Of a stretch of 64,000 nucleotides of DNA, positions 3,185 through 62,804 are shown piece by piece. Under the pieces are notes generated by a model. It was not told the DNA's origin. It searched no databases and saw nothing but the letters and a program-made list of their open reading frames with translations. The translations under genes were made by a program, and so were the position numbers. How positions within the stretch are numbered: the first letter of the stretch is position 1; the number at the start of each line of letters is the position of its first letter. Source of the stretch: an uncultured Candidatus Saccharibacteria bacterium (GTDB lineage: Bacteria > Patescibacteriota > CAZHWT01); the NCBI GenBank assembly GCA_964554805.1, contig CAZKPX010000002.1, positions 178,080 to 242,079 of the forward strand, given 5' to 3'.

Positions 3185-3685
3185 ATGAATAAAGATTCCT
3201 CATTTGGTCAACGTCTGAGCATTGTCGGACCTCCTCTATTGCTAATCTTAGTCGGTGGGGCCGTCTATCTGACAGTTCAGTATCTGAGACAACCTTCAAT
3301 TCAAACCATCGAAGCGGTGCCTCAGCAGCAATCAAGTCCTTCAGCCAGCCAGCCTGAAAGTTCATCTTCGGCCACTCTCACCACCATCACTACTCAGGTA
3401 ACCGTCTATAGTGCCTCGCAGATTTCTGATATACAAAAAGGTGTTGATGGCGGTCAAGACGCATGGTATTTGAATCCACTATCAGCCGCCAAAGAGTTGG
3501 GGAGGGATCAAGGCTTTACGGTCAATGATGCATTCTCAACCATTCAGGCCAGTTCGTCAGCTAGCCCAAGTCAAATTCAAGTCAAGGCTATTCATCAAGG
3601 CAAGGCATATACTATCACTATGCATCAGCCCGGGATCAATGGCGCCAAGGGTATATGGCTGATCAAAGACATTGCGGCTAATTGA
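3185..3685 (+). CDS. Hypothetical membrane-anchored protein with a Ser-rich linker
   Basis: An N-terminal TM segment is followed by a Ser/Thr-rich low-complexity region and a small C-terminal domain. It overlaps the mscS stop (TAATATG). Confidence 0.5.
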   Translation: MNKDSSFGQRLSIVGPPLLLILVGGAVYLTVQYLRQPSIQTIEAVPQQQSSPSASQPESSSSATLTTITTQVTVYSASQISDIQKGVDGGQDAWYLNPLSAAKELGRDQGFTVNDAFSTIQASSSASPSQIQVKAIHQGKAYTITMHQPGINGAKGIWLIKDIAAN

Positions 3686-3696
3686 CAACTCTGGCG

Positions 3697-4983
3697 CTAA
3701 GCTTGCTTTATGGTATTTATTGCCTGATCAATGGTAGTGAGCGACTCTTGCTTGGTGATTAAGTTTCGCAATGAAACTTGTTTAGCTTGCTGTTCTTCTG
3801 GTCCTATAATAATAGCCCAAGCTACTCCGGCTTCAGCCGCGGCTTTGCATTGCTTGCCTATCGATGAGGGTTGGTAGACCATATCGGTTTTTATGCCAGC
3901 TTGTCTGAGTAAATTGGTGGTGCTCAAGGTTGATTGACTGGCATTATCTGAGTCATCAAAGAGAGTGACTACTGCTTGGGTTGGATATGGGACGGTAGGT
4001 AATTGACCTACTTCTTCTAAGGCCGCAATTAGCCTATCAAGTCCGACAGAGGCGCCAACTGCCGGCAAATCCTGCTTGCTGAATCGGCTTACTAATTGGT
4101 CATATCGTCCACCGCTAAAAATAGAGCCGTAGTTTGGGGCTTTGGTGAAATTTGTTTCGAAGACCAATCCGGAATAGTAATCTAACCCTCGGACAATAGA
4201 TGGGTCAAACTTTATGTACTGCTCCTTTAATCCAAGCTGCTTGGCCAACTCTATAACATGGTAAAGATGTGGGGCCTGCAGGCTTAAGTCTTGATTGGGA
4301 TTTAGCAGTTGTTGACGAAGGAGATCGATATCAAAACTGCTGAGTCCTAGCTGATGCAACGCCTGCTGACTGTCTTCCCAGCTGACCTTCTCTAAGCTGT
4401 CGAGTATTTTAAATAAACCTTTTGTTTGCTTATCGTCTAACTGGAGCTTAGCTGCTAGTTGATTAACTAATTGGCGGTCACTAACTCTGATTATAAAATC
4501 TTCAACTCCCAAATTAAGCAGAATATCCTGGATGAGGACCAGCACCTCGGCATCAGACATCGGGCTGCTGCTGCCGACGATATCTGCATCGAATTGATAG
4601 AACTCCCTGTAGCGCCCTCGCTGGCTATTATCTGCTCGCCACACAGGTGCGACCTGGTAGCGTTTAAATGGTTTGGCTAAGTCTGGATATTGCGCTACCA
4701 CCCGGGCCAATGGCACAGTTAGGTCATACCTCATCGCGACTTGACGTTGACCGTGATCGGTAAACTTGTAGAGCAATTTTTCGCCCTCATCGCCAAGTTT
4801 GCCTAGCAGAATATCAGCATATTCAAGTGTGGGCGTTTCCAAGGGTAAGAAGCCAGACAAGGACATGGTATGGCTGATATTGGCAATCATCGAGTTGCGT
4901 ACAGCCATTTGATTGGGCAAGGTATCTCTAAACCCTTTTAACAACCTTGGTTCTATTCTGGGAGTCTTGGTTGATTCGTTCAT
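3697..4983 (-). CDS. hisS: Histidine--tRNA ligase
   Basis: A class II aaRS with HisRS motifs (RGxxDxLP-like KGFRDTLP, GGRYD, anticodon-binding C-terminus). The start is chosen at the internal Met (MNESTKTPRIEPRLLKGFRD), which aligns with the canonical HisRS N-terminus. The ORF-track start at 5055 adds 24 aa and leaves only 18 bp to the capA start. Confidence 0.85.
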   Translation of the reverse strand: MNESTKTPRIEPRLLKGFRDTLPNQMAVRNSMIANISHTMSLSGFLPLETPTLEYADILLGKLGDEGEKLLYKFTDHGQRQVAMRYDLTVPLARVVAQYPDLAKPFKRYQVAPVWRADNSQRGRYREFYQFDADIVGSSSPMSDAEVLVLIQDILLNLGVEDFIIRVSDRQLVNQLAAKLQLDDKQTKGLFKILDSLEKVSWEDSQQALHQLGLSSFDIDLLRQQLLNPNQDLSLQAPHLYHVIELAKQLGLKEQYIKFDPSIVRGLDYYSGLVFETNFTKAPNYGSIFSGGRYDQLVSRFSKQDLPAVGASVGLDRLIAALEEVGQLPTVPYPTQAVVTLFDDSDNASQSTLSTTNLLRQAGIKTDMVYQPSSIGKQCKAAAEAGVAWAIIIGPEEQQAKQVSLRNLITKQESLTTIDQAINTIKQA

Positions 4984-5073: not shown

Positions 5074-6222
5074 ATGAAGTTGTTCCATAGGCCAAAATCT
5101 TTAAGCTATGTCATTATCGTGGTAGTGTTGTTATGCTTGGTGGCGGCGGGTGTTGTACTATATAACGTTTATCGCCAAGAGCTGGAGTTGTTTGCCGGAC
5201 AAGGCGAAACAATCATAGCTGATACTAACACTCCAAATTTATCTCCTACGACAACCCACAGTCAGCCAGCGACTATCAATTATGAGACCTTGTTCCTAGC
5301 CGCAGAGTTGCCGTCAGCCATCGATCATAGCAAGCTGCGAGTGGTGGTGGCTACCGGGGATATTATTCCTGCCCGTGGGGTGGATGCTCAAATACGAAAC
5401 AAAGGTGTAGATTTTCCTTTTGCAGGTGCTGGTGTTGTCGATATACTGAAAGAGGCTGATATCGCTGTTACCAATCTGGAAGCGCCGATTCTCCAAAACT
5501 GCCCGGTTCATAATGTGGGCTTTACTTTTTGCGGACAGGCCAGATTTGCTGAAGCTATGGCACGAGCAGGCATCGATATAGCTAGTCTGGAAAATAACCA
5601 TATTGGAAATTATGGTCAGGCTGGCATAGCTGAAACTATTAGCCATTTAGATTCTGCTGGCATATTATGGTCTAGCAAAAGCAAGTTGGCGATATTTGAC
5701 AGCAGGGGTATGAAATTCGGCCTACTATCCTTTAATGGTATCTCCAGTCAAGGAATACTTGAACAAGGGGCAATCGAGGCGATTAAGCAGGCAGATTCTG
5801 AGGTTGAGGTGCTGATGGTGTCGGTGCATTGGGGCAAGGAGTATGAACTAGTGCCAGCAAGCTCGCCCGGTATTGCTCCCGAAAATCCTTTGGATATTAG
5901 TCAGCTGCTTATTGATGCTGGGGCTGACCTGGTTATTGGCAACCATCCTCATTGGGTGCAGGGCGTGGAGTTGTACAAAGATAAGCTGATTACCTATGGT
6001 CATGGCAACTTTATCTTTGATCAGTCATGGAGCCTGGAAACAAGCCAGGGCGTGATTGGTCGTTATACATATTATGATGACCGATTAGTCAAGGTTGACT
6101 ATGTTCCTGTTCAAATTGCCAACCAAGCGCAACCACAATTGGCTCAGGGACAGGCGAAGATGGACATCTTGGCTCGGCTTAAAGAATCGACTGAATTGAT
6201 TCGTCAATTGCGTCAGAAATAG
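5074..6222 (+). CDS. CapA family protein (poly-gamma-glutamate synthesis / metallophosphatase-like)
   Basis: An N-terminal TM segment is followed by a CapA-type metallophosphoesterase fold (GDIIPARG...NLE.P...NNH.GNYG...HWG.E...GNHPH). TATACT sits 6 nt upstream of the ATG, suggesting a leaderless gene. Confidence 0.7.
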   Translation: MKLFHRPKSLSYVIIVVVLLCLVAAGVVLYNVYRQELELFAGQGETIIADTNTPNLSPTTTHSQPATINYETLFLAAELPSAIDHSKLRVVVATGDIIPARGVDAQIRNKGVDFPFAGAGVVDILKEADIAVTNLEAPILQNCPVHNVGFTFCGQARFAEAMARAGIDIASLENNHIGNYGQAGIAETISHLDSAGILWSSKSKLAIFDSRGMKFGLLSFNGISSQGILEQGAIEAIKQADSEVEVLMVSVHWGKEYELVPASSPGIAPENPLDISQLLIDAGADLVIGNHPHWVQGVELYKDKLITYGHGNFIFDQSWSLETSQGVIGRYTYYDDRLVKVDYVPVQIANQAQPQLAQGQAKMDILARLKESTELIRQLRQK

Positions 6223-6295: not shown

Positions 6296-6685
6296 TTAAG
6301 CTGCTGCCTCGAGGAATTTTTTGACCTCGTCTATTATTTGGTCGGGAGTATATGCGGATTTGATTAGGTAGCCGTCGGCGCCGAGATTGAATCCTTCTTT
6401 AATAACTGAATCTTGGCCCAAGTTGGTTAACAAAATAACTGGCACATCCTTCGTCTGATCTTGCGCTTTGATAGCCTTTAACAAATCGAGGCCATTCATT
6501 TTTGGAAGCATGATATCCAAGAGCAATAGATGCGGGACCGTTTGGTTAATTTTGGTTAAACCTTCCGGGCCGTCGGCCGCACTGGCAACATCATAACCAG
6601 CCAATGATAATTGACGCTCATACAGTTCTCTAATAAAGAGATCATCTTCTACGATTAAAATTCGAGTTTGACTATTGTCTGCCAT
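6296..6685 (-). CDS. Single-domain response regulator (CheY-like receiver)
   Basis: ILIVEDD...LLLDIMLPKMNGLDLL...K has the receiver-domain Asp pocket and phospho-acceptor. There is no output domain (129 aa). Confidence 0.8.
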   Translation of the reverse strand: MADNSQTRILIVEDDLFIRELYERQLSLAGYDVASAADGPEGLTKINQTVPHLLLLDIMLPKMNGLDLLKAIKAQDQTKDVPVILLTNLGQDSVIKEGFNLGADGYLIKSAYTPDQIIDEVKKFLEAAA

Positions 6686-6735: not shown

Positions 6736-9105
6736 CTACCCTTTCATTTTGATTGTTTTACCTTGACGTACTAGCTCATACTCAGCGTCAGCAACTAAGC
6801 GACGAGTGGTGTTAATGGCTTCGGGGCTGACAGAGATGGAGCTAATTCCCCACTCGACTAACTTGCGAGTCATTTCAGGATAGACACTGGGTGCTTGCCC
6901 GCATATAGAAGACATAATACCATGCTCGGCGGCTCCTTTGACAACTTTTTGGAGGGCCCACATGACCGCCTCGTTTCGCTCATCGAACTGAGCAGCAACT
7001 TTGGGGTTATGCCGGTCGAGTCCCAAGATCAGTTGGGTCAAATCATTGGAGCCAATGGACAGGCCATCGATACCGACACCAATAAACTGATCGAGCATGA
7101 TGACATTGGCCGGCACTTCGACCATCATAAAGAGCTTAAAAGAGCCTCCTCTGTGCAAGCCGATTTGACTCATATGATGCTTGATTTCAACCAGCTCGCT
7201 TGGAGTGCGGACAAAGGGCACCATTAGCCATAGGTTTTTATGATATTGACGAACTTTTTTGACAGCTTGCAGCTCGAGCAATAGCTGTTGTCCGTCATTG
7301 CTGTGACGATATGCTCCGCGATAGCCAAGAGCAGGGTTGTCCTCATGGCCTTCATATTTCTGTCCGTGTTCTAGGTTGGCCAGCTGGTTGGCAGTCAGAT
7401 CACCAAGTCGGTATATCACTGGACGATTATCGAAAGGTTTGACCACTTCCATAATGCCTTCGTAGAGCGCGTCGACAAATACCTCAGATTTGCCTTTGTC
7501 TATAAAGTGTTGCGGGTGCTGACCGATGTGTTGGAAAAGGTATTCGGCTCGGAGCAATCCCACGCCATCGACATTTTTAGCTGCGACTTCGGCGGCTTGG
7601 CTTGGCTCGGAAATATTAACCATGACTTTTGTAGCAGTTTTCAGCTCAGAGTCTTGATCCGAGATGGCTTGAGTGACTTGACTGGAGTGTTTGATATGAG
7701 CATTGGCCGAAGTAACTGCCGCGCTCGAAGATTTAATAGCCAAGTCGCCTTGATAGACAGCGCCGGAGTTGCCATCGACGGTAATTGTTTCACCATTCTT
7801 TAACATTTTGGTGGCGCTGGTAGTTCCCAGAACGGCTGGAATGCCGAGTTCCCGAGCCACCATGGCTGCATTGGCAGTGCGTCCACCTTCGTTGCTGATT
7901 ATGGCAGATGGCAGCAGGCCGCTCGGAGTGAAGTTGAGTTCGGCCTCGTCTAAGACGATAATTGTATTTGGTTTTAGTTTTGATAAATCGTCGCCTGACT
8001 TAACTATTTTTACATGGCCTGCGGCGACACCGGGAGATGCCGGCAAACCGGTCAGTAGTGGGCTGGAGTTGGGGGAGGCTGCCGTTGAATGAGCAACACT
8101 GATGATATGCGCGCTGGATTGAGGATCTACGGGATTCGAGATAAGAGCATCTGACTGAACGATGTACAATGTGTGATCCGCATAGGCCCACTCTACTTGC
8201 TGCGCTTGTCCAAACTGCTCCTCAAGTCGGACTGTTAAGAGGGCTAGCTCAGTAATAAGTCTATCGGCTAGCTTTTGTTTGCGCTGCCAGGCTGCTGATA
8301 CCGGAATTCTAATATTTGCTTTGGTTAGCTCTGAAGTGGGGGCGTGAGTGGTTTTGGCTAATTGCCATTCTTGTCGAACTATATCTTTGCTCGTAATAAC
8401 CCAACCTTGCTTGCTGATTTGGTAATGATCGGGAGTTAGTTGACCATTAGCTATTGGCTCACCGAGTCCCCAGATAGCTTCGATTGTAATGCTGTTTGAG
8501 TCTAGGGTTAAAGGATTGATACTAAAACTGACGCCGGACATTTCAGCATCAACCATTCTTTGAATAATAACTCCACAACCATCGGGTATGGCATCGAGAT
8601 TTTTTTGGAGTCGGTAGTAGACAGCTTTGGCTTCGAATAAACTGGCCCAACAGTGCTTAACGGCTGCAAGCAGTTGTTTGTGGCCAATTATATTGAGATA
8701 TGAGGTGCCGGTGTTGTTGATGGAGCTATATTTGTCGTCCAAAATTGATTGGCGGACTGCTACGTGGACATCTTTGGTAGAAAGTTGTTGGTAGTTATGC
8801 AGGAGCTGTTGCTCGATTACGGCAGGTAGCTCGGCATGCAGAATTAACTGCTGGGCTACAGTTGCAGCATCCTGGAGCTTTTTGCTGTTATTAACATTGG
8901 CTTTTTGTAATACTTTGGGCAGTTTTTGATCAAGGTTGGTCTCTTGAAGAAATTGTTGAAAGACCTGACTTGAAATGACAAAGCCGTTGGGAATTGGCAT
9001 GCCAAGCTCAGTTAATCGTCCCAGATTGGCGGCTTTGCTGCCGATGTGTGGTGAAAGCTGAGGGTTGATTTGTGAAAGCCAGATAATGTGCTGTGATGAA
9101 GACAT
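6736..9105 (-). CDS. ppsA: Phosphoenolpyruvate synthase / pyruvate, water dikinase family
   Basis: It has an N-terminal PEP/pyruvate-binding (PPDK_N) domain and a central phospho-His mobile domain (GGRTANAAMVARELGIPAVLGT). The C-terminal PEP-utilizing TIM barrel and the 789-aa length fit ppsA. Confidence 0.75.
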   Translation of the reverse strand: MSSSQHIIWLSQINPQLSPHIGSKAANLGRLTELGMPIPNGFVISSQVFQQFLQETNLDQKLPKVLQKANVNNSKKLQDAATVAQQLILHAELPAVIEQQLLHNYQQLSTKDVHVAVRQSILDDKYSSINNTGTSYLNIIGHKQLLAAVKHCWASLFEAKAVYYRLQKNLDAIPDGCGVIIQRMVDAEMSGVSFSINPLTLDSNSITIEAIWGLGEPIANGQLTPDHYQISKQGWVITSKDIVRQEWQLAKTTHAPTSELTKANIRIPVSAAWQRKQKLADRLITELALLTVRLEEQFGQAQQVEWAYADHTLYIVQSDALISNPVDPQSSAHIISVAHSTAASPNSSPLLTGLPASPGVAAGHVKIVKSGDDLSKLKPNTIIVLDEAELNFTPSGLLPSAIISNEGGRTANAAMVARELGIPAVLGTTSATKMLKNGETITVDGNSGAVYQGDLAIKSSSAAVTSANAHIKHSSQVTQAISDQDSELKTATKVMVNISEPSQAAEVAAKNVDGVGLLRAEYLFQHIGQHPQHFIDKGKSEVFVDALYEGIMEVVKPFDNRPVIYRLGDLTANQLANLEHGQKYEGHEDNPALGYRGAYRHSNDGQQLLLELQAVKKVRQYHKNLWLMVPFVRTPSELVEIKHHMSQIGLHRGGSFKLFMMVEVPANVIMLDQFIGVGIDGLSIGSNDLTQLILGLDRHNPKVAAQFDERNEAVMWALQKVVKGAAEHGIMSSICGQAPSVYPEMTRKLVEWGISSISVSPEAINTTRRLVADAEYELVRQGKTIKMKG

Positions 9106-9187
9106 GGGCAGTCTATCCTTAACGGATATTTATAATGTAACTATAGCAAGCTTGGTTGATAAGCGCAATCAATTAATATTGCATCCA

Positions 9188-11290
9188 TCATTCTAATTTT
9201 AAGAATTTAGGTATAGATTGCTTATATTTGGCTGCAAATGCTAGGTCTACTTTTTGCACCGGATTGGAGCCTAGGAATGCCAGCAAGGAATCTAATTGTC
9301 GTTGACGGGTGTTTTTATCGTCGATATCAGCAATTTTAGCTATGTCTGATTCTAAGGCAAAATACTTTAGCTTATCGTCCAATGGTAGTTGCCAGAAGAG
9401 CAAGAATCCGCGTTCAGGAAAATCAATATCTATACTCCTGTAGCAATGCAGCATGACTTCCTTTTCTAGCTCTAGGAGCACTTGCTCTGTACTTGCTTTG
9501 GTTTGATCTATATCTGAAATATCAGCCGGAGGCGAACCTATCTCGAAGTACATTTTTATTTTAGGTTCAGTGCCGGATGGCCTAACAGTAACTTTTATAT
9601 CCTGACCATCTACTCCTGAATCAAGTTTGAAGATCAATACATCCTTGGCTGCTAAGTCAGTGTCAGACACAATCGGCAGCCTGGTTCGGCAGTCCTCGAA
9701 GCTTTGAACTGCAAACCTACCAAATTTTTGAGGCGGATTGGTGCGCAAGCTATTTTGTATCTGATCTATTTTTTCCTTACCAGTTGCACCTAGCATCCTG
9801 ATCTCTGTTAAGTAATTTCGGAAGTAGCCATATTCAGCATACATCTGATTCAGATAATCAACCAGCGTTTGCCGATCATCCTTTAATTCGGCTGCCAGCT
9901 CGGATAGCCAAACTGCTGCAGTGACCGCGTCTTTGTCTCGAGCATAGTCGCCAGCTAGATAGCCATGACTTTCCTCGCAACCAAATAAGAATCCATCTAT
10001 TTTTTCCTGCTCTTGTAACCTATTCATCACATCGCCGACATATTTGAATCCGATAAGTAAGTCACCCACCACATCAACGCCATTCATCTGACATATGCGC
10101 GCTACTAAATCCGTAGTTACAATGGTTTTAATAATGGTTTCTGAGCCATTGAAGCCAGCTTTCTTTTTATTAATGACATACGAAGTTAGGATAGCTGCAA
10201 TTTCATTGCCGTTAATAAACTGCCACTGGCCTTGGTGTTTAGCCATAACTCCAATTCTATCAGCATCGGGATCACTATTGAGAATAATATCGGCGTCTTG
10301 ATTTTTGGCAAATTCTAAAGTGGTATCAAATGACTGAATTACTTCAGGGTTTGGAATATTAAAAGTAACATTTTCAAATCTACCGCTTGGATTTGATGTC
10401 TTGGGATCGCTAACCACGCTAAAGCCCAGGTTTGACAGGACTTTTAGAACAGAGGTAGATCCACATCCATGCATCGGTGTGTAAATGATATTTATGTTTC
10501 GAGCTTCAGATAGCGATATGGCGGAAGCCTGAGCCAAATATTCAGTATCAAGTTTAGTTCCAAGGACTGTGATTAGTCCTTGATCCATTGCCTGCTGATA
10601 ATCCATGACTTGAATGTCGGTGACCTGCTGAGTGACTTCTGTCACTAAGGCCTCGTCTTCAGGTGGTATGAGCTGTCCGCCAAACTCATCATAAACTTTT
10701 TTGCCATTATGATTGGGTGGATTGTGAGAAGCGGAGAAGACTACTCCGGCTACTGTGTGTAAATGTCTTACGCTAAAGGAAAGCTGAGGTGTTGTTCGAA
10801 TATCGTCAAAGACATAGACTTTAAGACCATTAGCAGCATACACTTTGGCTGCGGCTAAAGCTAAATCCTTACTGGTTATATTTAAAACAGGATTAGGTAT
10901 GTCATTACTGAAATATTTATTGCCGATGAATTGTCGAACATCGTAGGCGAATACTACTCCTCGTTCTTTGGCTTGTAGTCCATATTGTTTGAGGAGAAAT
11001 TGCGAGTGACCTTGGGCTGATGCCTGGATAGTCCATTGATTAATACGATTTGGACCGACTCCCACCTCACCTCGCCTACCTCCGGTGCCGAATGGAATTA
11101 CCTGATAAAAAGAATCTAGCAAATAATCCCAGTGCTCTTGTTCAATAAGATGCTTGATTTGTGGGGTAAAGTCTGAAAACTGACTATCTGCTAACCACTG
11201 CTGGAGAAAACCTAAGGCGCTATCTTGATACTTAGGACTGACTTTTAATGAAGCAAATCCTTGCCTGGCTTTTTCGATGTATTCAGACAT
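9188..11290 (-). CDS. Phosphoglucomutase/phosphomannomutase family protein with a ~120-aa C-terminal extension
   Basis: It carries the active-site phosphoserine loop SASHNPPNHNG. The four alpha-D-phosphohexomutase domains are followed by extra C-terminal sequence, for 700 aa in total. Confidence 0.8.
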   Translation of the reverse strand: MSEYIEKARQGFASLKVSPKYQDSALGFLQQWLADSQFSDFTPQIKHLIEQEHWDYLLDSFYQVIPFGTGGRRGEVGVGPNRINQWTIQASAQGHSQFLLKQYGLQAKERGVVFAYDVRQFIGNKYFSNDIPNPVLNITSKDLALAAAKVYAANGLKVYVFDDIRTTPQLSFSVRHLHTVAGVVFSASHNPPNHNGKKVYDEFGGQLIPPEDEALVTEVTQQVTDIQVMDYQQAMDQGLITVLGTKLDTEYLAQASAISLSEARNINIIYTPMHGCGSTSVLKVLSNLGFSVVSDPKTSNPSGRFENVTFNIPNPEVIQSFDTTLEFAKNQDADIILNSDPDADRIGVMAKHQGQWQFINGNEIAAILTSYVINKKKAGFNGSETIIKTIVTTDLVARICQMNGVDVVGDLLIGFKYVGDVMNRLQEQEKIDGFLFGCEESHGYLAGDYARDKDAVTAAVWLSELAAELKDDRQTLVDYLNQMYAEYGYFRNYLTEIRMLGATGKEKIDQIQNSLRTNPPQKFGRFAVQSFEDCRTRLPIVSDTDLAAKDVLIFKLDSGVDGQDIKVTVRPSGTEPKIKMYFEIGSPPADISDIDQTKASTEQVLLELEKEVMLHCYRSIDIDFPERGFLLFWQLPLDDKLKYFALESDIAKIADIDDKNTRQRQLDSLLAFLGSNPVQKVDLAFAAKYKQSIPKFLKLE

Positions 11291-21250: not shown

Positions 21251-23836
21251 TTAGTCGACTTTGAATTCAATCTGCTGATTATCTGCTAATTGGGCTGCAA
21301 CCGATTGGCCTGGTCCAATTTTCTGATCAATTATATCCATGGCTAACGGATCAAGGAGATGGCTTTGAATAACGCGCCGCAAGGGTCGAGCTCCATAGAT
21401 TGGGTCATAGCCTATCTTGGCCAGATACTCTTTGACTTGTGGGCTGATAGCGATATGAATATCGCGCTCGCGTAGTTGCTGTGATATTTGCTCAAGCTGC
21501 AGTTCGGTGATGGTATCCATATCCTCCGGTCTTAGGCGCTGAAAGACGATAATATCATCTAGGCGATTGACAAATTCTGGCTTAAAGTGCTGCCTGACCA
21601 CCGTCATAACCTGAGACGCTAATTGCTGTGTGGTATCACCTTGCCATTCTTGAATAATTTGACTCCCAAGATTAGAAGTCATGATAATTATGGTATTGCT
21701 GAAATTAACGACACGTCCTTGGCCATCTGTCAATCTTCCATCATCCAGCACTTGGAGGAGAGTATTGAATACTTCGGGATGGGCTTTTTCAACCTCGTCA
21801 AACAAGATAACGGCATAGGGTCGGCGACGAACACTTTCAGTGAGCTGCCCTCCTTGGTCATAGCCAACATATCCCGGAGGAGCTCCGATCAATCTAGAAA
21901 CTGCGTGCGCCTCCATATACTCGCTCATATCAATTCGAACCATGGCGTGCCGATCATTGAATAAAACTTGAGCTAAGGCTTTGGCTAACTCAGTTTTACC
22001 GACTCCTGTGGGTCCTAGGAACATAAATGACCCAAGTGGACGATTGGCAGCTGACAGGCCTGCCCGGGCCCTTCGAATGGCGTTGGCAACTGTTTTGACT
22101 GCATCGGCCTGCCCCACCACTCTTGATTGCAGCTCAGCCTCTAAATTAACTAATCGATGGCTCTCTTGCTCAATCAGCCGTGACACAGGAATGCCTGTCC
22201 ATTTATGAATAACCTTGGCTATATCTTCTTCGGTAACTTCTTGACGCAACAATCGACTCCCGGAATCCTGATTGGCTATCTTTTGGTTCAACTCTTCAAT
22301 TTGGTTGGTTAATACAGGGATTTTGCCATACCGAATCTCTGCAGCTACTGCCAAATCTCCTTGCCGCTCTGCCTGCTCCTCAGCAAAACGCAATTGATCC
22401 TGCTCTTCTTGCAGCTTTTGACTCTGGTCAATCAAATCCTTTTCTTGTCGCCATTGCTGTTCTAAGGCGCGCTTTTGCTCTGTTAGATTGGCAATATCCT
22501 GTTTAACATTTTCCAGTCGTGTCTTGGCCTGATTATCCTTTTCTGTTTTTAGAGCTTCTTGCTCCACCTCAAGGCGACGCACTCGACGAGTCAAGTTATC
22601 AAGCTCGGCCGGCATACTATCAATATCCATTTTTAGGCTTGAGGTTGCCTCGTCGATGAGATCGATAGCCTTGTCAGGCAAAAAGCGCTCCGGTATATAT
22701 CTACTGGATAATTTCACTGCAGCCACCAAGGCACTGTCCGTTATTCGAACTCCATGGTGAAGTTCATACTTCTCTTTTAAGCCCCTAAGAATAGTAATTG
22801 CATCTTCTACGGATGGTTCGCCAACATAGACTGGTTGGAAGCGGCGCTCTAAGGCGGCATCTTTTTCGAGGTGCTGGCGATATTCATTGAGGGTTGTAGC
22901 TCCGATTAAATGAAGCTTGCCCCTTGCCAGGAGCGGCTTGAGCATGTTGGCTGCATCAACCGCTCCTTCACTGGCGCCTGCTCCGACAATGGTATGAAGC
23001 TCGTCAATAAATAGTATTACTTGACCTTGAGCATCTTCCACTTCTTTCAAGACTGCCTTAAACCGTTCTTCAAATTCTCCTCGAAATTTTGCTCCAGCCA
23101 GCAATGAACCAATTTCAAGGGATATGAGTTTTTTATTGCGCAGCGTATCTGGCACGTCGCCGCTAATAATTCTTTGGGCGAGCCCCTCGACAATGGCAGT
23201 CTTACCTACTCCAGGCTCACCTATTAAGACGGGATTGTTTTTGGTTCTTCGTGTTAGAACCTGCATGGTTCGCCGTATCTCATCGTCTCGACCAACGACG
23301 GGGTCCAGTTTGCCGTCATTGGCTAGGGTGGTCAAATCTTGCCCATATTTCTGCAGAGCATTGTGAGTGTCCTCTGGGTTTGGGGTTGTAACATTCATTG
23401 GTCGAATTCCTTTCATCTGTTCTAAGAGTGAAGCCGAGGTGAGGAAGAATTGTTGTAAAAGACGAGTTAAGGCTGGGCAGTCAGCCAAACCAAGCAGCAG
23501 ATGCTCGGTGCTAAGATAGCTATCGCCCATGCTTGTCATGTAATTTTGAGCTGCTGTTACAACTGTCTGAATATCGGGCGAAGAAACAGGCATAGCCGCC
23601 TGGGCGGTCTTAACAGTTGGCAGTTTAGCCAATTCTAAATCAAGCTTTGCTATGAGACTTTGCCTATCGACCGACAAGCTATTCAGCAAAGGTTGTACGA
23701 CTGTACCATCTTGTTGCACTACGCTGTAAAGCAGGTGAGCAGCTTCAAGCTGCCCGTGGTGTAACCGTTGGGCTAGCTGAAGGCTATTTTGCAGGGCTTG
23801 AGCTGACTTGTGAGTAAATTGTTCAGGGCTAATCAT
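21251..23836 (-). CDS. clpB: ATP-dependent chaperone/disaggregase ClpB
   Basis: Two AAA+ modules ([15 protein letters not shown]; [15 protein letters not shown]) flank the long coiled-coil M-domain. Length is 861 aa. A TTGACA-18-TATAGT promoter ends 5 nt before the ATG. Confidence 0.95.
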
Positions 23837-23854
23837 GACTAAACTATACGGTAA

Positions 23855-23881
23855 TTGTCAGTCGTATGTCAAGAGTGCCAA
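23855..23881. promoter_or_regulatory. CIRCE-like imperfect dyad (TTGTCAGTC-N9-GAGTGCCAA) overlapping the clpB -35
   Basis: It matches the CIRCE consensus TTAGCACTC-N9-GAGTGCTAA at 14 of 18 positions with the exact 9-nt spacer. It sits immediately upstream of the heat-shock gene clpB. Confidence 0.35.
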
Positions 23882-23944
23882 TATATTGTAGGAGAAGTAA
23901 TAGGAAGAAGAAAAATTTCTGTTGGTTCTTGTTATATCTTCAGT

Positions 23945-23995
23945 TTATACCAAAAACACACCCAGCTCTTAGGGCGAAACCGGGAGAGCTGGGTG
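23945..23995 (-). terminator. Rho-independent terminator (minus strand) in the CAP-clpB intergenic region
   Basis: Perfect 11-bp stem CACCCAGCTCT/AGAGCTGGGTG with a 15-nt loop. On the minus strand it is followed by TGTTTTTGG. Confidence 0.6.
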
Positions 23996-24150
23996 AGGGA
24001 ATGTTACTTAGAGCAAAGAATCGAATGTGTTGTTCACCTGTATGTCCTAAGTTGACTGTGCAACATGGAGCATAAAAGCGCACATTATTCCTTATTTTAT
24101 TCTATTTTTACAAGGTTCTCTAAGGTACTCCATTGACCAAGCTACGCTTG

Positions 24151-24172
24151 GTGGATATAGGATATGGGATAT
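24151..24172. repeat. Triple heptad direct repeat (GGATATA-GGATATG-GGATATG), copy A
   Basis: Tandem 7-bp repeats. The same architecture recurs at 26731-26751 and 28125-28145, each about 40 nt from a conserved box. Confidence 0.7.
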
Positions 24173-24264
24173 GGAAAATCGGAACACTATATTCAATATC
24201 TGATATTCTTTTATCCGTCTATATAGCGTATCAAGCAATCATGCAGATTGCAATAATTAGATTT

Positions 24265-24969
24265 CTATTCTCCGAACTGTACACCGAATTCTTGCACCCA
24301 AAAATTAGGAGAACCAGCCTTAAAGCCAACTCCGAGTTCTTTGGCTTTGTCGCTCAAAATATTGGCCCGATGAGATTCAGAATTCATCCAAGCAGCCACG
24401 ACTTCTTCAACTGATTGCTGGCCTTGACCTATATTCTCCCCCATCCAGCGCCAGTTAGTGTATCCCGCCTGTTCGTTTCGGTGTTTAAAGGTTTGACCAT
24501 CCGGGCTGGTATGGCTAAAAAATTTTTGGGATGACATCTGTTGGGCATATGCTTGGGCGGATTTTGACAGCTGCTGATTGAGCGATAGACTGCCCAGCTG
24601 ATTTTGACGCCGGATCGCATTGACCCTACTAAGCATTTCCTCGGCAAACTTAGGATTATTGGTGGCTGGGGGAGGGTTTTGAGGTTGATCGATCGGTTTT
24701 ACGGTGAGCTGTGCAGGCTGGGTATTTTGGGCTGCAGGCGGAGCCTCAGTCGTCGTCTTCTGTAAAGGCTCCAAAATGAAGCTCGGTATAAAACTTTGCA
24801 GTAGTGGGCTCAGGGTTAAGCCGGTTGTTTGCTGAGGCTGCACAGATGACTCTTCTTTGCTTGATAAGAACCACCAGGCATGCGTAGGGCTGGCGGTGGA
24901 CAATAGGAATAAAAGAATCAAGCTAAAACAAACGGTCTTAGCTGCCCAGTTGCGAATAGATATGGACAT
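24265..24969 (-). CDS. Secreted CAP/SCP/PR-1 domain protein
   Basis: A signal/TM N-terminus and a Pro/Gln-rich linker are followed by a C-terminal CAP domain (GHYTQVVW-like GYTNWRWMGENIGQG...SESHRANIL). Confidence 0.75.
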   Translation of the reverse strand: MSISIRNWAAKTVCFSLILLFLLSTASPTHAWWFLSSKEESSVQPQQTTGLTLSPLLQSFIPSFILEPLQKTTTEAPPAAQNTQPAQLTVKPIDQPQNPPPATNNPKFAEEMLSRVNAIRRQNQLGSLSLNQQLSKSAQAYAQQMSSQKFFSHTSPDGQTFKHRNEQAGYTNWRWMGENIGQGQQSVEEVVAAWMNSESHRANILSDKAKELGVGFKAGSPNFWVQEFGVQFGE

Positions 24970-25117
24970 ATTATATATAAGTTAGCATAGTTTCGATGCA
25001 TCTAGCAATAATTTCTTATCAGGGATAGTATCTGTTTCTTGCTGTTACTAAAGCAATTATTATCAACTAATTCAGTAGAGTGCTGATAAGTACTTTGATG
25101 ATAATCAAATCAGGCAA

Positions 25118-25393
25118 TCAAAAGGGGAACGTATCCTGATTTGCGAGTGGCATTTCTTGATCCACAGAGGAGTCGATCTTGCCTGCTTCATCGACCTGAT
25201 CCTCCTTGAGAAGAGTGGTTATTTTGGCTTGTGAGTCGGTCAGTATGGTTTGACACTGCTTGTGCAGAGCCACCCCTTCTTCAAGCAAGGCTAAACCTTG
25301 CTCAAGTTCGATATCTGGACTCTCTAGTTTGGCCACTATGTCTTCTAATCGCTGCATCTTTTGGCTAAAAGTTTGAATCTGCTGGTTTTCCAT
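25118..25393 (-). CDS. xseB: Exodeoxyribonuclease VII small subunit
   Basis: A 91-aa helical protein with LEDIVAKLESPDIELEQGLALLEEGVALHKQCQ, immediately downstream of xseA. Confidence 0.85.
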   Translation of the reverse strand: MENQQIQTFSQKMQRLEDIVAKLESPDIELEQGLALLEEGVALHKQCQTILTDSQAKITTLLKEDQVDEAGKIDSSVDQEMPLANQDTFPF

Positions 25394-25403
25394 ATGCTGC
25401 CTC

Positions 25404-26699
25404 CTATGTCTGTGGATCGTCGTGCAATTGCTCTATGCGACTAGTGATTTTGCCTTGATAGAGTTGAATATTAATTGTATCACCTGTTGCTAATTGGTGT
25501 ACGTTGCATACAACCTGGCCTTGGTGAGTTACCATGCTATATCCTCGGGCCAAGACATTGTGCGGGCTGACTGATTGGAGCTGCTTATCAAGAGCCGATA
25601 GTTTGACGGCAACCATTCTTGGAATCTGATTAACGGCTTGCAAGCTTTGTCGCAGTTGGTCTAAGCGGGATTGATTGTGAAGAGATAGCCTTTGTCCGCT
25701 GGAGGCTAATTGTTGATGAAGATGATCCAATCGAACAGGCAAACTCCTGTAGCTATGTTGAACTTGACTGAGAGAACCAAGTAAGTGGTCGAGTTGTTGA
25801 TAGTAGGAGCTGGTTTGATATCTATACAGATTGGCGATCTTTTGTTTGAGGTGGTGCAGTTCTAGCTGAGCGTCCTCGTAATTGCGAGTAATGATTTGGC
25901 CAGCATTGGTGGGGGTAGATGCTCGAACATCGGCGACCAGATCAGCTATTGAGATGTCTTTCTCATGGCCGACTGCCACCAGGGTTGGAATGGGACTGCC
26001 GGCAATGGCTCGAACGACCGCTTCATCATTAAAGGCTGCGAGGTCCTCTGCGCTGCCTCCGCCGCGAGTTATGACGATTGCTTCAATATCACGCTGCTGC
26101 AATGATTTAAGAGCTTTTAGGATGCTTGCAGGGGCTTGCGGACCCTGTACGTAGGTATCTGCGACTGTTAATTCGATTAGGGGGAACTTGTCGATCGTGT
26201 GTCGTTGAAAATCTGCCCAGGCATCACTAACGATTGAGGTGACAACACCTATCCGTTGCGGAAAGTTGGGTAATTGACGCTTCTTGTCTTGATCAAGCAG
26301 GCCCTCCTTTTGTAATTGTAGCTTCAGTTTCTCTAGCTGAGCGGCCAAGGCGCCGGCACCCACTGCTTCAATTTTGTTGACCACAAATTGATATGACCCA
26401 GATTTGGTAAACAGACTCAGCTTACCGAAAGCAAGAATCTTTTGACCATTAACCAGCTCGGCGCCAATATACGGATAGTTTTGCCGAATCACTACGGCTG
26501 GTAGAGAAAAATCGCCGCCGGTGTCTTTTAGGGTGAAGTATAGGTAGTAATAGCGACCATGCGCCCCTTTAAACTCACTGACTTCAGCCTCTACCCACAC
26601 CGACAATGTTTCGAGCATATCTTTAGCCAGACTGTTTAGCTGACCTATGGAAAAGACCTGGCGGTCTGATGAAGAGCTGTCTTGGAACAATTGAGGCAT
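25404..26699 (-). CDS. xseA: Exodeoxyribonuclease VII large subunit
   Basis: An N-terminal OB fold and the ExoVII catalytic domain (ITRGGGSAEDLAAFNDE) are present. The extended -10 TGTTATACT ends 6 nt before the ATG. Confidence 0.9.
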   Translation of the reverse strand: MPQLFQDSSSSDRQVFSIGQLNSLAKDMLETLSVWVEAEVSEFKGAHGRYYYLYFTLKDTGGDFSLPAVVIRQNYPYIGAELVNGQKILAFGKLSLFTKSGSYQFVVNKIEAVGAGALAAQLEKLKLQLQKEGLLDQDKKRQLPNFPQRIGVVTSIVSDAWADFQRHTIDKFPLIELTVADTYVQGPQAPASILKALKSLQQRDIEAIVITRGGGSAEDLAAFNDEAVVRAIAGSPIPTLVAVGHEKDISIADLVADVRASTPTNAGQIITRNYEDAQLELHHLKQKIANLYRYQTSSYYQQLDHLLGSLSQVQHSYRSLPVRLDHLHQQLASSGQRLSLHNQSRLDQLRQSLQAVNQIPRMVAVKLSALDKQLQSVSPHNVLARGYSMVTHQGQVVCNVHQLATGDTINIQLYQGKITSRIEQLHDDPQT

Positions 26700-26730
26700 G
26701 GCTTAAGTATAACAGCCAACTGCGCTGGCG

Positions 26731-26751
26731 GATATCGTATATCGGATATCG
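26731..26751. repeat. Triple heptad direct repeat (GATATCG-TATATCG-GATATCG), copy B
   Basis: Tandem 7-bp repeats about 20 nt upstream (on the minus strand) of the xseA -10 element. Confidence 0.7.
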
Positions 26752-26792
26752 AAAAAGTGCCAGAGCCCAGAATTAAACGTCTTCCATATTCT

Positions 26793-26819
26793 TATCCGTG
26801 TCTCTATATTCGCCTTGCT
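26793..26819. repeat. Conserved 27-nt intergenic box, copy B (TATCCGTGTCTCTATATTCGCCTTGCT)
   Basis: 24 of 27 positions are identical to the box at 28188-28214, with a partial match at 24212-24228. It lies immediately 3' of the oxidoreductase stop and is followed by the small hairpin GCCTTGC-TAA-GCAAGGC. Confidence 0.7.
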
Positions 26820-26827
26820 AAGCAAGG

Positions 26828-28084
26828 CTACGTTTTTAACTTGGTCAAATGCTCAGCTAAATCCTTGAGGGATTGGGTGTCGTCAGCAAGTTCGGCTAAG
26901 TATTTGGTTACGGGCTGTTGAGAGGCTATGATTTTGGTTATTGGTGTTTTGTCGGCAAAACGATTGATGAGGGTGGCTCCAATGACACGTTCTTTGTGAA
27001 TAAGAATACGACCATACGACCCAGACTTGGCTGATCCTCGGGGAATGACGGTCATGGAAGGGCGAGCTGAAGCCTGGCCAATAAAGCTGATATTTTTGCC
27101 AAAGACTGAGATGGAATACGCCGAAACGGCTTCTAGAGGCTGATTATCCCCAACCATATTGACGCCGGCGATTTGCCCCTGGAGCGTGGCATTTGTCCAG
27201 TTGCCTTGGTGGTGATGCAGCCCGCCTATCAGGTCGTAAAAAAGACTAATATCGCCGGCAGCATACACATCTGGCAGCTCAGTTTGCATGTACTGGTTGG
27301 TAATTATGCCGCCTTCTAAAAGCAATCCGCTGTGCTTGAGCCAGTCAGTTTGCAGATCTAGGCCAATATTGACCAGAATCAGGTCAGTTTTGATATGTTT
27401 GCCGTTGGATAGGATGATGCCCTCAACTTGCGAATCTCCCAGAACTGATTCGACGGTGGTGTTGTAATGGAAGTTTAGGTAGGACGAGCCTTGTTGCAGA
27501 ATAGATTGAATCAATAGCCCAGACTCGTGATCCAAGGTATTTGACCAGTAATGTGGTGTTCTGATAATAGCTGTAGCCGCTACACCAATATCGGCTGCGG
27601 CTTGAATCATTTCCAGGGTAATAAAACCCCCACCGACAATTGTGACATGCTTGGCTTGATGGAGTCTTTCTTTAATTTGTGAGGCTTGATCGACGGTGCG
27701 AAGCGGAATAACGCCTTGCAGATGGCTGCCTGGTATATTCCATTGTCTAGGCATACCACCAGTTGCGATAAGTAATTTATCGTAGCTAAGCCGCTGTCCG
27801 TCCTGTAGGCTGACAACTTTGTGCACAGCATCAAGATGGGTGGCTGTTTGACCCAGTATGATATCTATGCCTTGATCCTGATAATATTGCCCATCCTTGA
27901 GAAATAGGCTGTCAAAACTATTCTTGCCTTTGATGTAGCCAGCCAGAGCTGTTCTGGAATAGAGATAGTGGGGCTCACGCTCAACTATAAGAATAGTTCC
28001 CTGTGGATCACGCTGGCGTATGGCGATGGCCGCGGTGGTACCAGCTGCGCCGCCACCGATAATAAGATACTTGGCTGATTGCAT
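26828..28084 (-). CDS. FAD-dependent pyridine nucleotide-disulfide oxidoreductase (NADH oxidase / CoA-disulfide reductase-like)
   Basis: An N-terminal GGGAAG FAD-binding Rossmann fold, a second NAD(P) Rossmann fold (VTIVGGGFITLE) and a C-terminal dimerisation domain. Confidence 0.8.
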   Translation of the reverse strand: MQSAKYLIIGGGAAGTTAAIAIRQRDPQGTILIVEREPHYLYSRTALAGYIKGKNSFDSLFLKDGQYYQDQGIDIILGQTATHLDAVHKVVSLQDGQRLSYDKLLIATGGMPRQWNIPGSHLQGVIPLRTVDQASQIKERLHQAKHVTIVGGGFITLEMIQAAADIGVAATAIIRTPHYWSNTLDHESGLLIQSILQQGSSYLNFHYNTTVESVLGDSQVEGIILSNGKHIKTDLILVNIGLDLQTDWLKHSGLLLEGGIITNQYMQTELPDVYAAGDISLFYDLIGGLHHHQGNWTNATLQGQIAGVNMVGDNQPLEAVSAYSISVFGKNISFIGQASARPSMTVIPRGSAKSGSYGRILIHKERVIGATLINRFADKTPITKIIASQQPVTKYLAELADDTQSLKDLAEHLTKLKT

Positions 28085-28124
28085 AGGTTAATGATACTAC
28101 ATCCAATCAGCCACTTGCAGTGGT

Positions 28125-28145
28125 GAATATTGAATATGGGATATT
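28125..28145. repeat. Triple heptad direct repeat (GAATATT-GAATATG-GGATATT), copy C
   Basis: Tandem 7-bp repeats about 20 nt upstream (on the minus strand) of the oxidoreductase -10 element. Confidence 0.7.
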
Positions 28146-28187
28146 GGTGGATTCTGGATTTAGATTCTGGTTATTTACGATACCCTA

Positions 28188-28214
28188 TATCCGCGTCTCT
28201 ATGTTCGCTTTGCT
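28188..28214. repeat. Conserved 27-nt intergenic box, copy C (TATCCGCGTCTCTATGTTCGCTTTGCT)
   Basis: A near-identical copy of the box at 26793-26819. It lies immediately 3' of the CvpA-CAP gene stop. Confidence 0.7.
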
Positions 28215-28226
28215 TGTCAAATCTGG

Positions 28227-29195
28227 CTAATTGGAAAAGACTTGAGTAAAAATAATACCGTAGCGGGGGTCTTTGTAGGCGCCGATACCGACCTTGTTGT
28301 ACTTAGGATCGAGGATATTACGCTTATGGCCTGGGCTATTCATCAAACCAGTGTGAGCCATATCGACGGTTGGGGCCAGCGCCAGATTTTCTCCAGCGGC
28401 CAGATATTGGATATTAGCTGCTTCAATTCTATCGAATGGATCGAGGCCTTCAGGGGAATAGTGAGAGAAATAGCCGCGCTTAAACATATCTAAGCTGTGA
28501 GCTCGTCCAACCTGCCGCAAGTCGGTGGCGAGAACAAGCTCGTTTAAACCCTGCTTCGCTCGCTCTTGATTTAAAAGTTTGAGCATCTGCTGCTCGTCGG
28601 GCAGACTAATAAATGCGGAATCGGACGAGAAATTGAGGGTAACAATCTCTTTTGAATCAGGCTCTATGGTAAATAGCTGAGACAATTCATTGATAGCCGG
28701 TGTGACCAGCTTCTGAACAGGTGACCCAAGCTGCTCAAGGCCGTCTATTAGCGGCCGAGCCAACACGGCCTGGGTAACGGCTACTTTCATTGGGTGCTCG
28801 ATAGGCAAAGACGAGAAGATAGACGTCATATATGCCACAGTAATGAGACCGTTGGCTAGTCCGAGACCAGCTGCAAACCAGCTTGGGTGGGTTACACTAC
28901 GGAGTCTTGGGCCCATTTTCTTGCTCAGTAGCAGAATACTGCCGGTTATGAGGGTATCGATAACAAAGGCAAGTAATAGAAAGGCAAAAATATTGAGCAG
29001 ACTAGGAGGTATTGGCCAGATATTGCTTAGCCATGATGCTACTGGAGCATAGAAGGCATAGGCTGCCAGCAGTGAAACAATTAGTCCCAACAAATTTGCT
29101 GAAGCGGCTAAAAGACCGACCTTATAGCCTCTCCATAGGCAAAATGATAGGAATACGACAATCAGCAAATCAACTAATAATGACCATTGAGACAT
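28227..29195 (-). CDS. CvpA-family membrane domain fused to a C-terminal CAP/SCP domain
   Basis: The N-terminal roughly 150 aa is a four-TM CvpA-like region (MSQWSLLVDLLIVVFLSFCLWRGYKVG...). The C-terminus is a CAP domain (HSLDMFKRGYFSHYSPEG...GENLALAP...MNSPGHKRNILDPKYNKVGIG). Confidence 0.7.
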   Translation of the reverse strand: MSQWSLLVDLLIVVFLSFCLWRGYKVGLLAASANLLGLIVSLLAAYAFYAPVASWLSNIWPIPPSLLNIFAFLLLAFVIDTLITGSILLLSKKMGPRLRSVTHPSWFAAGLGLANGLITVAYMTSIFSSLPIEHPMKVAVTQAVLARPLIDGLEQLGSPVQKLVTPAINELSQLFTIEPDSKEIVTLNFSSDSAFISLPDEQQMLKLLNQERAKQGLNELVLATDLRQVGRAHSLDMFKRGYFSHYSPEGLDPFDRIEAANIQYLAAGENLALAPTVDMAHTGLMNSPGHKRNILDPKYNKVGIGAYKDPRYGIIFTQVFSN

Positions 29196-31741: not shown

Positions 31742-31768
31742 TCTAGCAAAGTATGACATAGAGTGCTA
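31742..31768. promoter_or_regulatory. CIRCE-like half-conserved dyad upstream of lon (CTAGCAAAG-N9-GAGTGCTAA)
   Basis: The right half-site matches the CIRCE consensus exactly with a 9-nt spacer, and the left half is degenerate. It shares TTRGCACTCT...TGWCATAC with the clpB and 39180 elements. Confidence 0.3.
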
Positions 31769-39179: not shown

Positions 39180-39206
39180 TTATCACTCTGTCATACGGAG
39201 TGATAA
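39180..39206. promoter_or_regulatory. Perfect 9-9-9 dyad TTATCACTC-TGTCATACG-GAGTGATAA (CIRCE-like) in a convergent intergenic spacer
   Basis: A perfect inverted repeat with a 9-nt spacer, one mismatch per arm relative to the CIRCE consensus TTAGCACTC-N9-GAGTGCTAA. It is AT-rich, so it is a poor terminator. Confidence 0.4.
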
Positions 39207-62786: not shown

Positions 62787-62804
62787 ATGATGAGCGCATA
62801 TGTG

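Follow-up and report, generated by a model that had tools for sequence, protein, structure and literature searches.

Heptamer repeats in bacterial intergenic regions have been known since the short tandemly repeated repetitive (STRR) sequences of cyanobacteria, and they abound in Xanthomonas, Nostoc and Beggiatoaceae. To our knowledge, neither a mechanism nor a binding partner has so far been established for such repeats. We also know of almost nothing on the control of transcription in Patescibacteria. Here we describe an intergenic module with a conserved box and three tandem heptads, three copies of which were found in a 64,000-nt stretch of DNA from an uncultured Candidatus Saccharibacteria bacterium (contig CAZKPX010000002.1, positions 178,080 to 242,079; below, the window, with positions counted from its first letter). 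Two other known arrangements are relevant for comparison. HutP of Bacillus subtilis reads NAG triplets in RNA, which occur three times at a period of 7 nt in two clusters upstream of a true terminator. Pneumococcal BOX elements, repetitive extragenic palindromes (REP) and bacterial interspersed mosaic elements (BIME) consist of a conserved 5' block, a tandem middle part and a 3' block with hairpin potential, and are present in tens to hundreds of dispersed copies of high identity.

Heptameric repeats are over-represented in bacteria (PMC4692102). The (GGGANTN)n repeats of Xanthomonas are conserved at positions 1-4 and 6, about 90% of them are intergenic, mostly between co-oriented genes, and 70-75 cases of inverted array pairs were described; no function is known (Rehm et al. 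2015, PMC4692102). The intergenic heptamer of Nostoc is GGGGA(C/T)T (PMC4692102). In Nostoc PCC7120, (TTCAAAA)3 at recF and (GACYAAT)8 at recO lie near promoters and modestly alter regulation, the partner not being known (doi 10.1101/2022.06.06.494920). Direct repeats of TAACTGA occur in Beggiatoaceae, cyanobacteria and Bacteroidetes, and those of Beggiatoaceae closely precede start codons (MacGregor 2015, PMC4679880). Finally, the omega protein of plasmid pSM19035, a dimeric ribbon-helix-helix protein, recognises contiguous heptads of 7 bp at promoters, whichever way they are oriented (PMC9499535, PMC2441792).

The window contains three paralogous, co-oriented copies of one composite non-coding module, each of approximately 105-135 nt and each situated between co-oriented minus-strand genes. 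On the minus strand, module A extends approximately from 28226 to 28085, module B from 26827 to 26700, and module C from 24264 to 24132. Read along the coding strand, the upstream stop codon is followed by hairpin 1 (clear in B and C), the box, a tract of decayed heptads, the heptad triplet, and hairpin 2. The box has the layout TATAGAGAC(N0-2)CGGATA, and its 3' part together with the flank holds one or two heptads in the inverted orientation. In module A the box is AGCAAAGCGAACATAGAGACGCGGATA (28188-28214, minus strand, about 13 nt past the stop codon of the CvpA-CAP fusion gene at 28229-28227), and in module B it is AGCAAGGCGAATATAGAGACACGGATA (26793-26819, minus strand). These two are identical at 24 of 27 positions, and module C has a partial box CGCTATATAGACGGATA (24212-24228, minus strand). 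The tract between the box and the forward triplet is 12-32 nt long. CGGATA and the first ATAT are separated by 43 nt in both A and B and by 39 nt in C; the spacers of A and B are equal in length despite their unrelated sequences. A preliminary description of this region had reported three co-oriented modules of box and heptad repeats, the 24 of 27 identities, the partial third box and a near-constant spacing. All of this stands, with the triplets lying within 1-3 nt of the positions given there.

The mean column identity in the three-way alignment is 64%, and the invariant columns cluster in the box, the heptads and the following CCA...TGG. The pattern ATATNCNATATNCNATATNCNCCA, with up to three mismatches allowed, has five matches against 0.06 expected, and none of 100 shuffles reached five; four of the matches, including all three exact ones, are inside the modules. 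Within the 64 kb, three ATAT at a period of 7 nt are confined to the modules. A profile search (nhmmer) recovers the three copies with E-values from 1e-32 to 4e-22 and finds no further copy either in the window or in the loci of four relatives. All copies lie within 4 kb, and the other 60 kb of the window contain none. Self-identity at lag 7 is 0.37-0.42 in the modules as against 0.27 in 4.3 kb of other intergenic DNA, and Tandem Repeats Finder (TRF) reports period 7 with 3.1-3.3 copies at all three loci. A coding function was rejected: the only overlapping open reading frames (ORFs) are spurious ones of 40-48 amino acids starting with TTG, and a period of 7 nt is incompatible with a repeated peptide. 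The modules are a real, statistically solid and lineage-specific element in three copies.

The forward heptads, all on the minus strand, are CAATATC, CCATATT and CAATATT in module A (28126-28146), CGATATC, CGATATA and CGATATC in module B (26731-26751), and CCATATC, CCATATC and CTATATC in module C (24154-24174). The unit can be written as ATATNCN or, equally, as C-N-ATAT-Y. All nine heptads share ATAT and the C at position 6, and they differ at positions 5 and 7. Each array is homogeneous at its variable positions, with CG in B, CC or CT in C and CA or CC in A, and we infer that this uniformity reflects homogenisation driven by replication slippage. In module A the triplet adjoins a second, decayed array of the GAATCCA type (28148-28170, minus strand), for which TRF gives period 7 with 3.4 copies (p=0.004 at lag 7).

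Heptads in the inverted orientation, which the preliminary description had not reported inside the box, were located by a position-weight scan built from the nine forward heptads. The left half of every module carries them. Read on the plus strand, module A has CTATATC and CGATACC (28178-28191, overlapping the 3' end of the box), module B has CCATATT (26784-26790) and, inside the box, CTATATT (26804-26810), and module C has CTATATT and CAATATC (24187-24200). Exact opposite-strand matches to CNATATY number five in the three left halves, where 0.29 are expected (P=1.3e-5). At the variable positions, the inverted heptads lack complementarity to the forward heptads; the pairing of left and right arms is marginal, and the strand favoured by it is inconsistent. 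A duplex of the two arms as a conserved helix was rejected on these grounds. Since the inverted heptads keep the consensus, are non-complementary and pair only marginally, recognition of double-stranded DNA in either orientation fits them better than pairing does.

Each forward triplet is directly followed by hairpin 2, also absent from the preliminary description. On the minus strand, it is CCACT-GCA-AGTGG in module A (28111-28123; -4.9 kcal/mol on the sense strand), GCCAGC-GCA-GTTGGC in module B (26715-26729; -7.9 kcal/mol sense, -4.7 kcal/mol antisense) and CCAAGC-GTA-GCTTGG in module C (24137-24151; -8.7 kcal/mol). The three copies agree in the outer CCA/TGG. The two inner pairs are different in each copy but remain paired through compensatory changes. 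One pair in module B is G.U and can form only in the sense strand. In B, hairpin 2 weakly resembles a terminator and has a U-rich tail, whereas A and C have no U-tract. Hairpin 1 is CCTTGC-TTA-GCAAGG in module B (26813-26827, minus strand), directly past the stop codon of the FAD oxidoreductase gene (26830-26828), where the plus-strand complement was flagged as terminator-like, and GCAATC-TGCAT-GATTGC in module C (24235-24251, minus strand). Hairpins 1 and 2 are unrelated to each other in sequence. The invariant heptad core, the fixed copy number, the equal spacers, the inverted heptads and the covarying hairpin all indicate constraint.

Candidate promoters were observed between the modules and the downstream genes. 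The FAD oxidoreductase gene, downstream of module A, has a -10 hexamer TATCAT (28091-28096, minus strand) 6 nt before the ATG at 28084, which leaves no leader. The xseA gene, downstream of module B, has an extended -10 element TGT TATACT (26706-26714, minus strand; hexamer at 26706-26711), again 6 nt before the ATG, at 26699, and again without a leader. The former is kept in the relative L065 (TAGTATCATAAACATATG) and the latter in L066 (GTTATACTAACGATATG); the elements common to the window and the relatives are TAGTATCAT..ATG at the FAD gene and GTTATACT..ATG at xseA. Thus relatives without the module retain both the hexamer and the leaderless ATG. Because of the position of the -10 elements and their conservation in relatives, both genes appear to be leaderless, with promoters predicted between the module and the start codon. 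The same layout is seen at clpB, where a -10-like hexamer (23843-23848) lies exactly 6 nt before the ATG at 23836. None of the three starts is preceded by a Shine-Dalgarno box, in the window as well as in relatives. The sequences suggest that leaderless mRNAs may be widespread in this lineage of the candidate phyla radiation (CPR). A separate feature of the FAD gene is a perfect 9-bp inverted repeat GGCTGATTG...CAATCAGCC (28103-28111 and 28073-28081, minus strand), which brackets the -10 element and the start codon and in a read-through RNA would sequester codons 2-4.

Modules A and B stop 3-14 nt short of the -10 hexamer. From the end of module C it is about 20 nt to the 5' end of the conserved small RNA described below. 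The last heptad is separated from the ATG by 41 nt in A and by 31 nt in B, and from the ATG/GGAG that opens the small RNA by about 20 nt in C. With these ATGs taken as the transcription starts, the arrays would be centred at -51.5 in A, -41.5 in B and about -31 in C. The preliminary description had put the repeats at the position of a -35 box at all three loci. This holds for xseA only: at the FAD gene the array covers approximately -42 to -62, and its position at C depends on the start that is assumed.

Our best guess, tentative as it is, would be that a small regulator binds the heptads, as double-stranded DNA, upstream of the three promoters. This protein would read them in either orientation and multimerise along the DNA, by the logic of the omega repressor, with the forward triplet over or just upstream of the -35 region. 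As the array centres would be one helical turn apart, the bound protein would present one and the same face to RNA polymerase in all three copies. Common control would then extend to the oxidoreductase, exonuclease VII and the small RNA within a stress-gene cluster bracketed by lon and clpB, both with sites similar to the controlling inverted repeat of chaperone expression (CIRCE). A multi-site operator is the best single mechanism because it accommodates double-stranded recognition, the closeness to promoters and the spacing in steps of about 10 nt. The latter two features, and the heptads in both orientations, are compatible with the shared activator or repressor site proposed in the preliminary description, although the ORFs of the window include no candidate for the binding protein. 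It is doubtful, if conceivable, that the ATAT heptads form the operator code of a dedicated heptad-reading regulator, with the oxidoreductase, exonuclease VII and the small RNA constituting one stress regulon.

Several points weigh against such an operator. No gene for a ribbon-helix-helix or other small DNA-binding protein was observed among approximately 60 ORFs of the window. The orphan response regulator at 6296-6685, which had been suggested as a candidate binder, was rejected, as it is a stand-alone receiver domain of 129 amino acids with no output or DNA-binding domain. The covariation in hairpin 2 and its sense-only G.U pair point to structure in RNA or single-stranded DNA, and a double-stranded operator leaves the hairpin unexplained. 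An architecture of about 105 nt common to all copies, with its spacing fixed, is what one would expect of a copied element or an RNA more than of operators that evolved independently. The phasing rests on three points, on assumed transcription starts and, for C, on a weak -10 element. The left and right heptad clusters are 12-32 bp apart, unlike the contiguous operators of omega, and the relatives manage without the module. Finally, the over-representation of heptameric repeats in bacteria may be due to polymerase slippage alone (PMC4692102).

The hairpins bring in another possibility, namely that the module acts at the level of RNA, in read-through transcripts. The heptads would be single-stranded sites for an RNA-binding protein, either in the manner of the HutP trimer or for S1 or cold-shock proteins, which were proposed for the TAACTGA repeats, and the role of hairpin 2 would be in stability or processing at the 3' end of the upstream mRNA, or in gating the translation of the next gene, which has no Shine-Dalgarno box. 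The compensatory changes and the sense-only G.U pair in hairpin 2 agree with this, as does the location of hairpin 1 directly past the stop codons in B and C. There is no intrinsic terminator between the genes, with hairpin 2 of B being weakly terminator-like; the period of 7 nt repeated three times in two clusters is the geometry of the HutP sites; and convergent heptad pairs elsewhere in the lineage form sense-strand hairpins after genes. The TAACTGA repeats of Beggiatoaceae precede genes without ribosome-binding sites (PMC4679880). However, the sense strands of whole modules fold no better than shuffled sequences (z=+0.1, -0.1 and -1.4), and the pairing of the arms is not conserved. An RNA-binding protein would miss the inverted heptads, yet those keep the consensus. 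The conserved -10 elements and leaderless starts place the heptads outside the transcripts of the downstream genes proper. The C-rich, G-poor character is missing in module B, so there is no common role in Rho utilisation. No Rfam family matches even at E<=5, and module C precedes a non-coding RNA, so a translational role could not be common to all three copies. We consider an RNA-level function rather improbable.

Some specific RNA and promoter elements were tried and rejected. A whole-module RNA structure was among these: only the antisense strand of module C is strongly structured, not those of A and B. A C-rich, G-poor Rho-utilisation tract is strong in A and C and missing in B. The box does not make a sigma-70 promoter: its hexamers similar to TTGACA or TTGCTT are just 9-13 nt from TATAGA, the final T is missing, and the promoter scan is silent there. 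Sigma-54 or sigma-32 elements in hairpin 2 do not fit by spacing, as judged by inspection. Tandem interspaced guide RNA (TIGR) arrays were dismissed, as there is no gene with a Tas/Nop domain and no matching repeat structure.

The loci of relatives, anchored on the XseA and ClpB homologues, retain the gene order. The spacer between the CAP and FAD genes is 54-57 nt in L065 and L066, and that between the FAD gene and xseA is 44 nt in L066; these short spacers contain little beyond the -10 hexamer 6 nt before the ATG. No triplets of ATAT heptads were found in the relatives' loci compared. In L068, unrelated inserts of about 500 nt occupy both junctions (3539-4049 and 5293-5798), one of them with a small cysteine-rich ORF, and in L065 two extra genes are inserted (8832-9932). 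The CAP-FAD and FAD-xseA junctions are insertion hot spots across the clade. Since the spacers of relatives are short or unrelated and have no triplets, modules A and B each add about 100 nt to a spacer that tolerates insertions, and do so in this lineage only. On the other hand, the stretch ATGATTGCTTGATACGCTATATAGAC in the box of module C aligns with ATGATTGGCTGTTACGCTAGATAGGTAC of L065. Because of this common box region, module C is probably the ancestral copy; A and B may have arisen from it by local duplication, with the arrays kept internally uniform by replication slippage. Two other assemblies of the same organism are 100% identical to the window over the loci covered (B and C in both, A in one), and thus no difference in copy number was observed across the three independent assemblies.

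This history may also be read as that of a neutral or selfish repeat: a heptamer family born by slippage and copied locally into insertion-tolerant spacers, with no adaptive role and with only incidental effects on promoters. The modules are absent from the orthologous spacers of relatives, which are themselves insertion hot spots (L065, L068). The uniformity of heptads within each array, next to decayed arrays of other heptads, is typical of the birth and death of tandem repeats, and arrays of other heptads are present both in the window (52810-52886) and in L076. Many bacteria have an excess of simple heptameric repeats, and for the large families of Xanthomonas and Nostoc no function has been demonstrated (PMC4692102). 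The pattern scan of the whole genome collection yielded mostly plain heptamer repeats. At the same time, a neutral origin does not account easily for a core invariant at three loci, for exactly three units at each, for a spacer length kept despite unrelated sequences, for the enrichment of inverted heptads (P=1e-5) and for the compensatory changes in the hairpin. There are no terminal inverted repeats, target duplications or transposase; the copy number is the same in three independent assemblies; and the repeat has not been dispersed into the other 60 kb of the window. A neutral repeat is a serious possibility, although we regard it as unlikely. The small dispersed repeat family that the preliminary description had considered is borne out insofar as the modules are paralogous copies of one unit absent from the relatives' spacers, but a family confined to 4 kb is not dispersed.

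A further possibility is a non-autonomous mobile element, namely a miniature inverted-repeat transposable element (MITE), a REP or BIME, or a palindrome-associated transposable element (PATE) derived from IS200/IS605, with hairpins at the ends and subterminal heptads serving as transposase-binding sites. Such an element would account for the hairpins near both ends, the inverted heptad clusters, the common orientation of the copies, their location between stop codon and promoter, and their absence from relatives. However, we recognised no terminal inverted repeats, REP palindrome or target-site duplications. The copies are just about 64% identical, hairpins 1 and 2 are unrelated in sequence, and the three copies lie in 4 kb with none in the other 60 kb of the window. 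No transposase, RAYT, TnpA or TnpB gene is present in the window, and nothing similar was found in plasmids, phages, viral contigs or metagenomes. Specifically, BLAST against plasmids and phages gave nothing, the pattern of box plus heptads had no match in viral contigs and matched two unrelated sequences only in metagenomes of the Joint Genome Institute (JGI), and Rfam had no match at the gathering score in the whole window and none at E<=5 in the region 23800-28300. Thus no fragment of a known mobile or REP-type element, which the preliminary description had named as grounds for abandoning its proposal, was found. A mobile element is very unlikely.

A heptad-only pattern had 62 scattered matches in 185,579 species-representative genomes, nearly all of them one per genome. 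Most are plain tandem heptamers from unrelated phyla, and none is from the source genome. Loci L003-L064 (for example L045, L023, L008, L010, L052) contain long intergenic runs of drifting tandem heptamers, with several units in succession. Such runs were observed in Chloroflexota, Bacteroidota, Planctomycetota, Balneolaceae and others, often just 5' of a ribosome-binding site and ATG.

Pairs of heptad arrays that form true hairpins are also present in this lineage, at 52810-52886 and in L076. In the window, the region 52810-52886 (plus strand), 18 nt past the stop codon of an ABC-transporter gene, contains three GCGACNN and three NNGTCGC units in convergent orientation. The arms are near-identical and fold into a GC-rich hairpin of 17 bp followed by UUUU (z=-2.8), which resembles a terminator. 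In L076 (5990-6100, minus strand), five tandem heptads CAGAAAG TAGAAAA CAGAAAA TAGAAAG TAGAAAT, i.e. (YAGAAAR)5, have an inverted partner CTTTCTGTTTCCTG. This array lies between the CAP stop codon and the small RNA, with the position and layout of module C and another heptad, and forms a hairpin on the sense strand (z=-2.7). A perfect tandem repeat of the pentamer GATTG (8.6 copies) was observed in an intergenic spacer at 62804-62846.

The unannotated transcript postulated downstream of module C in the preliminary description corresponds to a conserved structured small RNA (23954-24131, minus strand), directly 3' of the module, and its identity is new here. The fold consists of a closing helix GGAGU/CUUAGAG...CUCUAAG/AUUCC, a variable insert, a terminator stem (23984-23961) and a U-run. 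There is a single-stranded AUUCCCUC tract, and the terminator apex GGUUUCGCC is conserved. Compensatory changes were observed at three positions of the closing helix and at many positions of the terminator. The RNA was found in L065 (12258-12441), L066 (17240-17390), L068 (13390-13512), L075 (2817-2938) and L076 (5790-5960, minus strand), and it is linked to the CAP gene in all six loci of relatives that carry the 3' flank of that gene. In L076 it stays with the CAP gene although clpB is elsewhere. It opens with AUG in the window, L068 and L075; however, the compensatory changes alter the codons, and therefore the conservation is at the level of RNA. In L075, a promoter TTACAA-17-TAATAT occupies the position equivalent to module C. 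The small RNA has no match in Rfam and has not been described previously.

The genes in this region follow each other on the minus strand in the order Lon, CvpA-CAP fusion, module A, FAD/pyridine-nucleotide-disulphide oxidoreductase, module B, XseA, XseB, CAP-domain protein, module C, approximately 250 nt without a gene, and ClpB. The other ORFs of the window, about 60 in total, are housekeeping or stress genes. No transposase, ribbon-helix-helix protein, cold-shock protein or HutP is encoded among them. The nearest XseA is just 60% identical. The named relatives of ClpB, at about 60% identity, belong to Patescibacteria, and therefore the host is a deep-branching CPR bacterium. A good CIRCE-like site, the operator of HrcA, was observed at 39180-39206 (TTATCACTC-N9-GAGTGATAA). 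The site upstream of lon (31742-31768, TTAGCACTC-N9-CTTTGCTAG) has a degenerate right half, as does the one at 23855-23881, which overlaps the clpB promoter TTGACA-18-TATAGT. The clpB site is cleaner in relatives (in L068, TTAGCACTC-N9-GAGTGATAA).

Compared with the known systems, the modules are a further variant of intergenic heptamer-repeat arrays, here in a CPR genome. As in this class in general, the units are contiguous and heterogeneous with a conserved core, they lie in intergenic regions between co-oriented genes, and inverted pairing is present; the number of units, however, is constant across the assemblies of the same organism. The arrays of Xanthomonas and Nostoc share the contiguous units, the conserved core, the location and the inverted pairing, together with the low number of units per array, and the conservation of positions 1-4 and 6 in Xanthomonas is that of ATATNCN. 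They differ in being G-rich and able to form G-quadruplexes, in their dispersal at about 185 per genome, and in copy numbers that vary between strains, whereas the modules have an AT-rich core, exactly three units within a larger structure of box and covarying hairpin, three copies in 4 kb of the 64-kb window, and identical assemblies.

The repeats at the recF and recO genes of Nostoc and the TAACTGA repeats resemble the modules in having at least three tandem heptamers some tens of bases from a -10 element or a start codon, including those of DNA-repair genes, with downstream genes that often have no canonical ribosome-binding site. However, these are plain arrays without a shared flanking box or hairpin, and the TAACTGA arrays are a few nucleotides from the start codon, whereas the arrays of the modules are 20-41 nt upstream with the -10 element in between. 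The resemblance to BOX, REP and BIME is limited to the layout of block, repeat and hairpin in intergenic spacers; the modules are three local copies, 64% identical, without sequence similarity to any of these. The sites of HutP also combine three motifs at a period of 7 nt, in two clusters, with an adjacent hairpin, but the motif here is ATAT..C, hairpin 2 has a U-rich tail in B only, and the HutP family has no match among the ORFs of the window.

The omega operators are built of several 7-bp units in direct and inverted orientation at promoters, and the modules have several such units near predicted promoters. The two differ in the unit (WATCACW as against CNATATY) and in the arrangement, with 7-10 contiguous heptads as against three plus one or two separated by 12-32 bp. 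Moreover, omega is encoded by a plasmid, whereas the context here is chromosomal, in a CPR bacterium, and has no ribbon-helix-helix gene among the ORFs of the window. The locus provides a small tractable case, with three paralogous copies, an invariant core, a fixed copy number, inverted partners, a covarying hairpin and a set position relative to leaderless promoters, and the modules would be among the first cis-regulatory architectures described in Patescibacteria. Should the heptads indeed be the operator code of a dedicated regulator, no earlier intergenic heptamer array would have had its binding partner defined, or its positional logic, here that of steps of one helical turn relative to leaderless promoters. 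The conservation of positions 1-4 and 6, as in the repeats of Xanthomonas, might then reflect a common way of reading heptads.

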